Source: an uncultured archaeon (GTDB taxonomy: Archaea; Iainarchaeota; Iainarchaeia; Iainarchaeales; 1-14-0-10-31-34). Taken from it: 40,182 nucleotides of DNA. The translations under genes and the position numbers were made by a program. The stretch is taken from NCBI GenBank assembly GCA_964442255.1, contig CAYTYC010000001.1, forward strand, positions 66,526 to 106,707, in the 5' to 3' direction. Below are positions 3,071 to 40,182 of this stretch, one piece after another. Numbering within the stretch: the first letter of the stretch is position 1; every line of letters begins with the position of its first letter. Under the pieces are notes generated by a model. That model had not been told where the DNA came from. It made no database searches and worked only from the letters and a program-made list of their open reading frames with translations.

Positions 3071-3170
3071 ATTTTCCCTCAAATATTAACCCAAGAGGGG
3101 CTTAATTAAGGTATCTTTCAGGCATCTTTTTAAAGACTAAAATAAAAACATTTTCCGGCCACCTTTTTCT

Positions 3171-17453: not shown

Positions 17454-17568
17454 GCTGCATAACCTTTAAATCTTCTTCAACCCTATTTTTATTGTGCATC
17501 TTGGGTGCAGCCCCGTAGCCGGGGAACCTTTTAAGAAAAGGTTCGCCAAAAAACAGGCTGCGGAGCAC

Positions 17569-17811
17569 AGCCCCGTAGTCTAGCGGCCAAGGATGCAGGG
17601 CTTTGGAAATCAGAACCTGCGGTTCCGATACCTCCCTTAATTTTCGGGGGAGGCGCAGAACCAGGGATCCGGTACCTCCCTTAAAACTTTCGCGCGAAGT
17701 TTGCACGCGGATACGTCAAGGGTTTTCCCTTTGGTCAACCCTTTATAAATATTTGTGGGAGGTTCTGGTTGAAGAAACCCTGTGACGGGAGTTCGAATCT
17801 CCCCGGGGCTA
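17569..17811 (+). tRNA. tRNA-Gln(UUG) with a 170-nt intron at 37/38 (17607-17776)
   Basis: Exon 1 AGCCCCG...CAGGG-CT-TTG-G; exon 2 A-CCCTG...GTTCGAATC...CGGGGCT-A; BHB formed by CTTT/GAAG helix, two 3-nt bulges and 11-bp helix 17608-17618/17760-17770; A1-U72 pair typical of archaeal tRNA-Gln. Confidence 0.93.
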
Positions 17812-39976: not shown

Positions 39977-40134
39977 GGGGCCGTGGTGTAGCCTGGTCCA
40001 GCATCGGAGCTTTGGGTCAGCCATTTCGTAGGCTGGGTCCGAGATATGTGGGGATTTCCCTTTGGTCAATCCCCAAGAATATGCTTTTGGCTGCAAAAGA
40101 GCTCCTGACCCCGGTTCAAATCCGGGCGGCCCCA
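39977..40134 (+). tRNA. tRNA-Pro(UGG) with an 83-nt intron at 37/38 (40017-40099)
   Basis: Exon 1 GGGGCCG...GGAGC-TT-TGG-G; exon 2 A-GCTCC...GGTTCAAATCC...CGGCCCC-A; BHB formed by TTTG/CAAA helix, 3-nt bulges and outer helix CAGCCA/TGGCTG. Confidence 0.94.
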
Positions 40135-40182
40135 TTTGCCGGCTTCTGCCGGCAGTGCAGGGAGCCATGCTAGCGCATGGTT

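Follow-up and report, generated by a model that had tools for sequence, protein, structure and literature searches.

The competing 5' hairpins of two long tRNA introns in the window (the whole stretch of 40,182 nucleotides that was analysed) are probably a structural by-product of passenger modules and not a dedicated off-switch. The introns lie in the tRNA-Pro(UGG) and tRNA-Gln(UUG) genes, and in each of them one strand near the 5' splice site can pair either with a proximal arm, as a local hairpin, or with a distal arm, as helix h' of the BHB splicing motif. The original prediction held that the introns encode these hairpins as competitors that would block the BHB motif, and that a conformational switch could thereby gate tRNA maturation. 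Both hairpins instead proved to be the leading stems of repeated modules, here called M1 and M2, that also occur outside introns. Since the hairpins belong to repeated modules common in tRNA genes, a purpose-built splicing switch is unlikely. The argument draws on module membership, covariation, distribution and predicted energies.

Both genes were missed by default ARAGORN and by Rfam at its gathering threshold, under which tRNA-Ile was the sole match in the whole window. ARAGORN with introns allowed detects the two genes, labelling the second 'Stop(tta)' because the intron is placed 2 nt too early. Intron boundaries were reset by the BHB rule (a 5-bp anticodon stem h, a 4-bp helix H and two 3-nt bulges cut after the second nucleotide), and ARAGORN calls the products spliced at these boundaries tRNA-Pro(tgg) and tRNA-Gln(ttg). 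The features of the tRNA-Pro(UGG) gene are as follows.

39977-40134, + strand: tRNA-Pro(UGG) gene, with an 83-nt intron at the canonical 37/38 position
39977..40016, + strand: exon 1, positions 1-37, with anticodon TGG at 40013-40015
40017..40099, + strand: intron, 83 nt, essentially a single M2 module plus the distal arm
40018..40035, + strand: proximal hairpin, which is M2 stem P1 (CAGCC, loop ATTTCGTA, GGCTG)
40050..40074, + strand: M2 stem P2, with a small inner 2-bp stem; supported by covariation
40075..40083, + strand: M2 A/T-rich box at the module 3' end, TATA-like by eye
40088..40093, + strand: distal arm TGGCTG, forming the 6-bp BHB helix h' with 40018-40023
40094..40097, + strand: 3' strand of helix H, CAAA, pairing with TTTG at 40011-40014; 3-nt bulges at 40015-40017 and 40098-40100
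40100..40134, + strand: exon 2, from position 38 to discriminator A

Those of the tRNA-Gln(UUG) gene are listed in the same way.

17569-17811, + strand: tRNA-Gln(UUG) gene, with a 170-nt intron at the canonical 37/38 position
17569..17606, + strand: exon 1, with anticodon TTG at 17603-17605
17607..17776, + strand: intron, 170 nt, in the order M1, diverged M1 copy, M2, distal arm
17609..17640, + strand: M1 copy 1, whose hairpin at 17609-17629 is the proximal hairpin, followed by GATACCTCCCTTAA
17656..17684, + strand: second, diverged M1 copy, CAGAACC-AGG-GATCCGGT-ACCTCCCTTAA
17684..17762, + strand: intron-internal M2 copy with P1 AAACTTT/GAAGTTT, ATACGTCAA, P2 and TTTATAAATAT
17760..17770, + strand: distal arm AGGTTCTGGTT, forming an 11-bp h' with 17608-17618
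17771..17774, + strand: 3' strand of helix H, GAAG, pairing with CTTT at 17601-17604; bulges at 17605-17607 and 17775-17777
17777..17811, + strand: exon 2

Both are canonical archaeal hBHBh' tRNA introns. Read by hand and by script, the Pro motif consists of h GGAGC/GCTCC, H TTTG/CAAA and a 6-bp h' (40018-23 with 40088-93), and the Gln motif of h CAGGG/CCCTG, H CTTT/GAAG and an 11-bp h' (17608-18 with 17760-70); in both, H has 4/4 and h 5/5 pairs, the two 3-nt bulges lie on opposite strands, and h' is contiguous with H. The CCTCCC of GATACCTCCCTTAA in Gln M1 copy 1 additionally pairs with GGGAGG near 17648-17653. The same Pro intron is present in DNA contigs from two samples of one study, one low-depth contig showing a G>A at 40043, outside all arms.

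The arms that had been predicted to compete read back exactly, as CAGCC (40018-40022) with proximal GGCTG (40031-40035) or distal GGCTG (40089-40093) in Pro, and as ATCAGAACC (17609-17617) with proximal GGTTCCGAT (17621-17629) or distal GGTTCTGGT (17761-17769) in Gln. The Gln proximal pairing contains one A.C mismatch and closes a 3-nt loop; the distal pairings, at 6 bp in Pro and 11 bp in Gln, are slightly longer than predicted. In both introns, the two pairings of the single 5' strand are mutually exclusive and non-random. We shuffled the mononucleotides of each intron interior 20,000 times and asked how often a proximal complement at least as good as the observed one arose: when required to start 3-15 nt after the arm, it did so in a fraction of 0.015 of the shuffles for Pro and 0.002 for Gln, and anywhere in the interior in 0.065 and 0.019, respectively.

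Module M2 was delineated in the host genome (1.28 Mb, 94% complete), where 23 of the 42 predicted tRNA genes are called with introns. Fifteen long introns (76-259 nt) at the canonical site were detailed, all of which give proper tRNAs after splicing by the BHB rule; three loci (C15:27117, C24:7705 and C38:3593) were left out of this set for poor BHB scores, the first of which, read by hand, is a tRNA-Ser(GCU) gene with an M2 intron. M2 is a two-hairpin block of ~79 nt, and 11 own-genome copies of it align collinearly (a twelfth copy, identical to one on contig C17, was excluded from the alignment). It consists of stem P1, a conserved linker ending in ATACGTCAA, stem P2 with a small inner stem and an A/T box, for example TTATAAATAT. 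The hairpin that the Pro and Gln introns were said to share is real and corresponds to P2: across the 11 copies, 96.5% of its cells are paired and 6/8 pairs are changed on both sides, a covariation score that 0/500 shuffles reached, with slid controls 27-59% paired. P1 stands at the same place in 10/11 copies as seven different stems (CAGCC/GGCTG, CAACC/GGTTG, ACCCGGT/GTCGGGT, ACGCGG/CCGCGT, CAGCTG/CAGCTG, AAACCG/CGGTTT and AAACTTT/GAAGTTT). Eight of the 11 copies lie in tRNA introns and three outside introns, beside tRNA-Leu genes. M2 runs from intron nt 2 in six genes (Pro UGG, Pro CGG, Glu UUC, Arg UCU, Gly CCC and the Ser gene on C15) and is intron-internal in two (Gln and Glu CUC). Homologous intron sequence is thereby common to isoacceptors of different identity, namely Pro (two genes), Glu (two genes), Arg, Gly, Ser and Gln.

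By eye, the M2 A/T box resembles the TATA-like boxes upstream of the genome's tRNA genes. We considered it as an internal promoter for a 3' half-tRNA, as in a split-gene intermediate, and set this reading aside. The spacing between box and exon 2 varies, measuring by our own count 22-34 nt in the Pro UGG, Pro CGG and Gln introns and about 45-65 nt in those of Arg and Gly, and with transcription beginning ~25 nt downstream of the box the distal arm would be lost as well. Next to the tRNA-Leu genes on contigs C17 and C5, arrays of modules are flanked by duplicated tRNA 3' ends.

A canonical hBHBh' can be folded with a 3' complement in Pro(UGG), Gln(UUG), Pro(CGG), Gly(CCC) and Ser(CGA), among others. 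A downstream complement of at least 5 Watson-Crick bp to the P1 5' strand accompanies 5/10 M2 copies, all five of them intronic, versus 4/84 non-cognate combinations; this enrichment downstream of intronic M2 fits selection for h' in introns. The M2 introns of Glu UUC and of the Ser gene on C15 have no distal arm, and that of Arg UCU has a weak one. The paralogous tRNA-Pro(CGG) gene (contig C34) carries a homologous 84-nt intron, in which the arms CAGCC/GGCTG/GGCTG of Pro(UGG) read CAACC/GGTTG/GGTTG, the G to A difference in the 5' arm being matched by C to T in both partners. Both helices seem to have preserved their pairing through a single compensatory event, just as would be expected of a functional two-state design, and this counts against the by-product reading. 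Placing one strand under two constraints (overprinting) would nevertheless explain the double compensatory change without regulation. The helix h' reaches 1-2 bp beyond P1 into its loop in both Pro introns; hence the distal arm does not simply duplicate the proximal one. Distal arms look selected for pairing and not copied, and they may have been selected to restore h'.

The arms are also direct repeats (GGCTG twice in one Pro intron, GGTTG twice in the other), which could be a DNA-level footprint left when a module inserted into a short hairpin intron that was already there, RNA pairing being under no selection. The duplicated tRNA 3' ends around the tRNA-Leu module arrays (C17, C5) and the frequent tandem duplication of modules would go with such an origin, yet the repeat stops at the pairing nucleotides, the complementarity of the distal arm runs on into the P1 loop, and P1, including its 3' strand, is present in the non-intron M2 copies and hence cannot be the old target. 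Furthermore, the Gln distal arm fits the complement of the 5' strand (11/11 pairs, one of them G.U) better than it fits the proximal arm, and both arms have changed in Pro introns that are homologous over P1. We therefore rejected a target-site duplication, with the repeat limited to pairing nucleotides and P1 integral to the module, and regard a footprint of this kind as very improbable.

Module M1 opens the Gln intron. It is an element of ~30 nt composed of ATCAGAACC, a 3-nt loop and GGTTCCGAT, then ACCTCCCTT; the hairpin followed by GATACCTCCCTT makes up the whole element. When the Gln gene was searched against 60 relatives, the M1 segment matched at 93-100% identity in many dispersed copies across families, with match counts, part of which come from tRNA exons, of 16 in G002, 12 in G011 and 12 in G029. 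When 185,579 species genomes were scanned for exact matches to a 25-nt degenerate pattern (22 specified bases), 66 loci (69 matches) came back, mostly in DPANN MAGs, under record labels that include Iainarchaeum, Aenigmatarchaeota, Micrarchaeota, Altiarchaeota, Woesearchaeota, Nanoarchaeota, Parvarchaeota and Bathyarchaeia; a few records are labelled Halobacteriales, Methanosarcinales, Bathyarchaeia or bacterial, and a few are unlabelled or probably mis-binned. M1 lies immediately behind tRNA 3' ends, in antisense immediately ahead of tRNA 5' ends and within anticodon-loop introns; other matches directly follow a 16S 3' end (L069), form a tandem array (L113) or possibly lie in frame within ORFs (L106, L068). 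Among the introns read, it starts at nt 3 in 8/9 and at nt 2 in the ninth. In the host genome it opens the Gln, Asn, Glu(CUC) and Asp introns, where several copies, tandem or diverged, are often present; modules are commonly duplicated in tandem. Neither IS200/IS605 elements nor RAYTs were retained as candidate mobilisers of M1, since the ends of a TnpA+TnpB element (C21) and the flanks of a solo Y1 gene (C9) bear unrelated hairpins. A C/D box reading of M1 and M2 was likewise set aside, no boxes being seen by eye and no Rfam match being found at E up to 10.

Orthologous introns separate the two arms. In two members of the same family (G005 and G006), the Gln intron is 49 nt long and consists of M1 alone, with no distal complement to the first strand; its first hairpin follows right after the bulge and the second hairpin of M1 abuts the 3' strand of H. 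Because these introns keep M1 without a distal arm, the proximal arm is the conserved part and the distal arm the novelty. Gln(UUG) is intronless in five other family members, in which the exon matches abut, and the Gln intron of G002 (201 nt) is of unrelated sequence. On whether the dual pairing covaries in related introns, the Pro paralogs show one double compensatory change, and the Gln orthologs of G005 and G006 retain the proximal arm and no distal one. Five tRNA-Pro(UGG) orthologs of family f1 (L009, L010, L017, L018 and L028) have unrelated long introns in which a local 5' hairpin and a distal complement can be seen by eye, a recurrence that would count against the by-product reading; by script, their distal arms measure 8, 2, 9, 3 and 10 bp, respectively, reaching at least 4 bp in 3/5. 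A sixth Pro ortholog (L003) has a plain short hairpin intron.

The generality of the two pairings was surveyed in 38 distinct introns of at least 40 nt with a good BHB core, taken from the host genome and from fetched loci; the set is biased, having been fetched through Pro, Gln and M1 queries from related genomes, and for several relatives the boundaries taken from ARAGORN are misplaced by 1 nt. At a threshold of at least 4 bp, both pairings occur in 19/38 introns, so the dual logic does recur, whereas 13 have the proximal pairing only, 2 the distal only and 4 neither. A proximal hairpin of at least 6 bp starting at nt 2-4 is present in 27/38, and a distal h' of at least 4 bp in 21/38 cognate pairs versus 14.5% of non-cognate pairs; h' is absent or at most 3 bp in 17/38. 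With the core fixed, predictions place the 5' strand mainly in the distal pairing in 16 introns and mainly in the local one in 6, with 6 mixed cases and 10 in neither. The claim that the hairpin would block the splicing motif does not sit with these counts, given the 13 introns with a hairpin of at least 4 bp and no distal arm of that length and the M1-only Gln introns of G005 and G006. For Glu(UUC), Glu(CUC) and Asn, the sole gene found in the genome falls in the hairpin-only class; together with G005 and G006, these genes imply that the hairpin form is not generally unspliceable.

Introns with the hairpin alone also suggest that a local hairpin 3' of the 5' bulge could itself promote cleavage and make the distal arm optional, either as a surrogate h' or carried in the enlarged bulge of a three-way junction. 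Such a helper role would account for the 13/38 hairpin-only long introns and for the G005/G006 Gln arrangement, with the first M1 hairpin right after the bulge and the second abutting the H 3' strand. It would also suit the position of the first paired nucleotide in minimum free energy (MFE) folds of the first 40 nt, which falls at 1-3 in 28/38 introns against 45% for arbitrary origins in the same introns, and the Pro hairpin form with the core fixed, in which P1, the extended M2 stem and H make a tight three-way junction with gaps of 0 nt from P1 to the next stem and 1 nt before H. On the other hand, in most hairpin-dominant predictions the nucleotide before the H 3' strand is unpaired (P 0.0-0.5), leaving no continuous h', and the enrichment of distal arms over non-cognate controls suggests that the canonical helix is favoured when available. 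A strict test for contiguous stems of at least 6 bp gave no enrichment at nt 2-3 (3/38 versus 9.8% in controls), partly because M1 has an internal mismatch, and we found no biochemical precedent for such a substrate.

The splicing endonuclease bears directly on this alternative. One EndA gene was found (G000, contig C19); it encodes 170 aa with N- and C-terminal domains and no insert, and is alpha4-like. Its best full-length PDB match is 1a79, the 171-aa homotetrameric enzyme of M. jannaschii (residues 3-168 on 5-169, E 4e-26), and no second EndA subunit was found. The BHB is described as the critical determinant for archaeal EndA in a passage of PMC4090602, and alpha4-class enzymes are reported, in the abstract of PMC5829648, to need canonical motifs. 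A sole alpha4-like EndA alongside introns with the hairpin alone is a point against the by-product reading. Mainly because these two coexist, we keep a splice-site helper as an alternative worth carrying forward, though an unlikely one.

Energies were computed with a nearest-neighbour model, which includes neither protein nor tertiary structure, so that all values given here are predictions. Helix H has a probability of about 0.01 in such folding of either intron because its two bulges are penalised; the BHB motif was therefore read from the sequence and not from the MFE, and ensembles were compared with h, H and the bulges fixed. Under this constraint, the two Pro forms are nearly tied, at -64.4 kcal/mol for the full BHB and -65.1 for the hairpin form (0.7 apart), whereas in Gln the full BHB (-96.4 kcal/mol) lies about 6 ahead of the hairpin form (-90.3). 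In the full Pro pre-tRNA, the proximal hairpin has a pair probability of 0.83-0.87 and distal h' 0.10-0.12; in the full Gln pre-tRNA, h' has 0.95-0.98 and the proximal hairpin <0.01. Pro(CGG), Gly(CCC) and Ser(CGA) are predicted at 0.97-1.0 distal over the h'-capable nucleotides. Findpath upper-bound barriers from the hairpin form are about 16 kcal/mol for Pro and 17 for Gln. MFE folds of growing transcripts kept the proximal hairpin at 8/8 lengths tested for Pro, full length included; the Gln 5' arm paired proximally at 73-103 nt, with other partners between, and distally from 208 nt. These folds suggest that the Pro(UGG) hairpin form is substantially populated and that the Gln hairpin is at most a transient co-transcriptional intermediate. 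In predicted stability the two mutually exclusive helices are comparable for Pro, with its near-tied folds, and not for Gln, with the BHB ahead by ~6 kcal/mol.

A regulated switch, in which the proximal hairpin ties up the h' strand while binding of a protein or ligand at P2 shifts the balance and so gates tRNA maturation, would draw on the mutually exclusive helices, the near-tied Pro(UGG) energies and predicted barrier of about 16 kcal/mol, the proximal hairpin in every Pro prefix MFE and the compensatory change kept in both helices of the Pro paralogs; P2, conserved by covariation, could be a plausible binding site. Gln and Pro(CGG), however, are predicted at 0.95 or above in the BHB form, the hairpins are part of modules also found outside introns, and they are kept where the distal arm is absent, as in the M2 introns of Glu UUC and Ser on C15 (Arg UCU having a weak arm). 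Rfam searches of both introns at E up to 10 gave partial tRNA-like or chance matches only and no riboswitch, and no evidence of a sensor, a ligand or a ligand pocket was found for these introns. Of the proposed conformational switch, what stands is the mutual exclusivity of the helices and the near-isoenergetic Pro folds; what does not is a switch common to both introns, in view of the Gln h' probability of 0.95-0.98 and the module hairpins retained without a distal arm. We consider a regulated switch improbable, though conceivable for Pro, where nothing was found in its support; passenger modules are the most likely reading.

A kinetic checkpoint is doubtful to a similar degree. Here a folded P1 or M1 would preclude the BHB, and intron excision and tRNA maturation would await refolding, perhaps catalysed or timed by a factor bound to the conserved P2 or M1 structure, as a constraint imposed by a selfish or symbiotic RNA element. 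If it were true, the best example would be Pro(UGG), whose two folds are nearly tied in energy and separated by a high predicted barrier.

Under the passenger-module reading that we favour, self-folding modules would have colonised the discarded parts of tRNA transcripts in a DPANN lineage resembling Iainarchaeota. They would have settled flush with the 5' splice site, M2 with P1 from intron nt 2 and M1 from nt 3, and because of this flush position the h' strand would be the module's own first-hairpin strand. Introns with a 3' complement would then fold the canonical hBHBh', and the others would display the local hairpin alone beside the 5' bulge.

Archaeal tRNA splicing is usually pictured as a simple one-motif readout in short introns. 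The host genome combines 15 long introns (76-259 nt) made of repeated structured modules with a single EndA found, of the narrow-specificity type, which raises the questions of how far an alpha4-type EndA tolerates departure from the BHB, whether a local hairpin can stand in for h', and how introns grow and spread. The sharing of modules among introns, leaders and trailers, in one case across DPANN phyla, suggests a concrete vehicle by which introns could be gained; a 2026 preprint on Asgard tRNA introns reports that how they arrive is still unsettled. For the claim of competing hairpins, the value of the analysis is mostly corrective, in that the hairpins are real and best read as overprinting and not as regulation. 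The literature searched (subscription journals and bioRxiv supplements were outside its scope) yielded no account of M1 or M2, nor of a hairpin/BHB competition in tRNA introns of DPANN archaea.

The introns agree with canonical hBHBh' introns, and with the relaxed BHL and hBH forms, in their 37/38 position, 4-bp H, two 3-nt bulges and cut after the second bulge nucleotide. A passage of the 2014 review (PMC4090602) gives archaeal tRNA introns as 11-129 nt, with medians of 12-25 nt; those described here differ in length (83 and 170 nt, with other introns of the genome reaching 259 nt), in containing repeated modules, in an h' strand that doubles as a module stem and in the many sister introns without h'. 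Box C/D sRNAs offer a second comparison: one resides in the archaeal tRNA-Trp intron (a passage of PMC4090602), and 'mobile' C/D box sRNAs next to tRNAs, as well as one in the N. equitans tRNA-Met intron, are mentioned in a passage of PMC3491384. Like these, M1 and M2 are self-contained structured RNAs in or beside tRNA genes that apparently move between loci; unlike them, they have no C (RUGAUGA) or D (CUGA) boxes by eye, no Rfam match and no noted complementarity to tRNA exons. In Haloferax pre-tRNA-Trp, guide-target pairing and the BHB are reportedly alternative folds as well. With REP/BIME and Rickettsia-type palindromic repeats, M1 has in common that it is short, hairpin-forming, multi-copy, present in both orientations and sometimes tandem; REPs are species-specific, whereas M1 is nearly identical across phyla, and the C21 and C9 flanks revealed no link to a Y1 transposase. 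A further parallel is the intron transposition among Thermoproteales tRNA genes (Fujishima et al. 2010, as cited in a passage of PMC4090602), where very similar introns likewise sit in different isoacceptors of one genome. The present case is set apart by the location of all host and surveyed long introns at 37/38, and by shared units that are sub-intron modules, found outside introns as well and, for M1, common to several archaeal phyla.

M1, an element of about 30 nt made of a hairpin and a tail, resembles the 3′ terminus of the 16S rRNA of its own genome (contig C17, about 3120-3155). In the copy located in the tRNA-Gln(UUG) intron (window 17609-17640), the 10-mer GAACCTGCGG and the 6-mer ACCTCC are found at the same spacing as at the 16S end, and 17 of 29 positions match in an ungapped comparison; the 10-mer match is weaker with TAC, the more frequent loop variant of M1. 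Furthermore, at the M1-bearing locus L069 of one other MAG, the 16S 3′ end is followed immediately by M1. This likeness could possibly be explained by derivation of M1 from the rRNA end or, as another possibility, by a binding partner common to both sequences, such as an rRNA 3′-end processing factor. The own-genome 16S match (C17:1481-3155) is itself 1675 nt long for a model of 1478 positions, and the gene thus probably carries at least one insertion or an intron.

Several M1 copies of the same genome are split, their hairpin (ending GGTTCCG) and tail (CCGAT[A/G]CCTCCCTTAAG) lying 40-200 nt apart:

C14:22400-22510, split M1
C27:60-160, split M1
C9:19090-19200, split M1
C3:26449-26780, split M1 in the Asn intron

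The presence of A/T-palindrome hairpins between the two halves suggests that a second type of small element inserts into M1. At two M1-bearing loci of other MAGs (L106 and L068), with frames read by eye, M1 seemingly lies within putative ORFs that encode acidic or proline-rich low-complexity stretches, and its ~30 nt are free of stop codons in all three forward frames.

M1, A/T-palindrome modules, and M2, a two-hairpin module of about 79 nt that includes an A/T box, also occur together in arrays after tRNA-Leu(GAG) and tRNA-Leu(UAA), both broken by runs of N that represent assembly gaps:

C17:22600-23480, minus strand, tRNA-Leu module array
C5:25700-26300, tRNA-Leu module array

Inside both arrays, the tRNA's own final 15-20 nt recur, up to three times on C17; the arrangement looks as if it arose either by tandem duplication or by integration, more than once, at the 3′ end of the tRNA. 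One M2 copy outside introns (C5:26230-26275) ends about 35 nt ahead of the ATG that opens a small, basic ORF, and the A/T box of M2 resembles, as judged by eye, the TTTAAA-type boxes found about 30 nt upstream of tRNA genes in the same genome. Given this position and this likeness, M2 may also act as a portable promoter.

Other small elements flank tRNA genes. About 60 nt upstream of both tRNA-Gln genes (window 17500-17568, and contig C42 before tRNA-Gln(CUG)), the mini-hairpin AGCCCCGTAGCCGGGG consists of a copy of the tRNA-Gln 5′ acceptor strand and its complement; it is followed in both cases by the A/T palindrome AACCTTTTAAGAAAAGGTT, which probably contains the TATA box. The GC-rich hairpin TTTGCCGGCTTCTGCCGGCAGTGCA lies downstream of tRNA-Pro(UGG) (window 40135-40182) and tRNA-Pro(GGG) (contig C47), and a similar sequence is found in reverse complement upstream of tRNA-Ile(UAU) (contig C12). 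In sequencing run X1, contig depth rises from ~9 to 62-89 across window 40116-40182, as would be expected of a repeat.

The 216-nt intron of tRNA-Trp(CCA) (C26:9120-9410) contains GATGA and CTGA motifs, as read by eye. Judged from these motifs, the intron is consistent with a candidate box C/D sRNA, fitting the box C/D sRNA of other archaeal tRNA-Trp introns.
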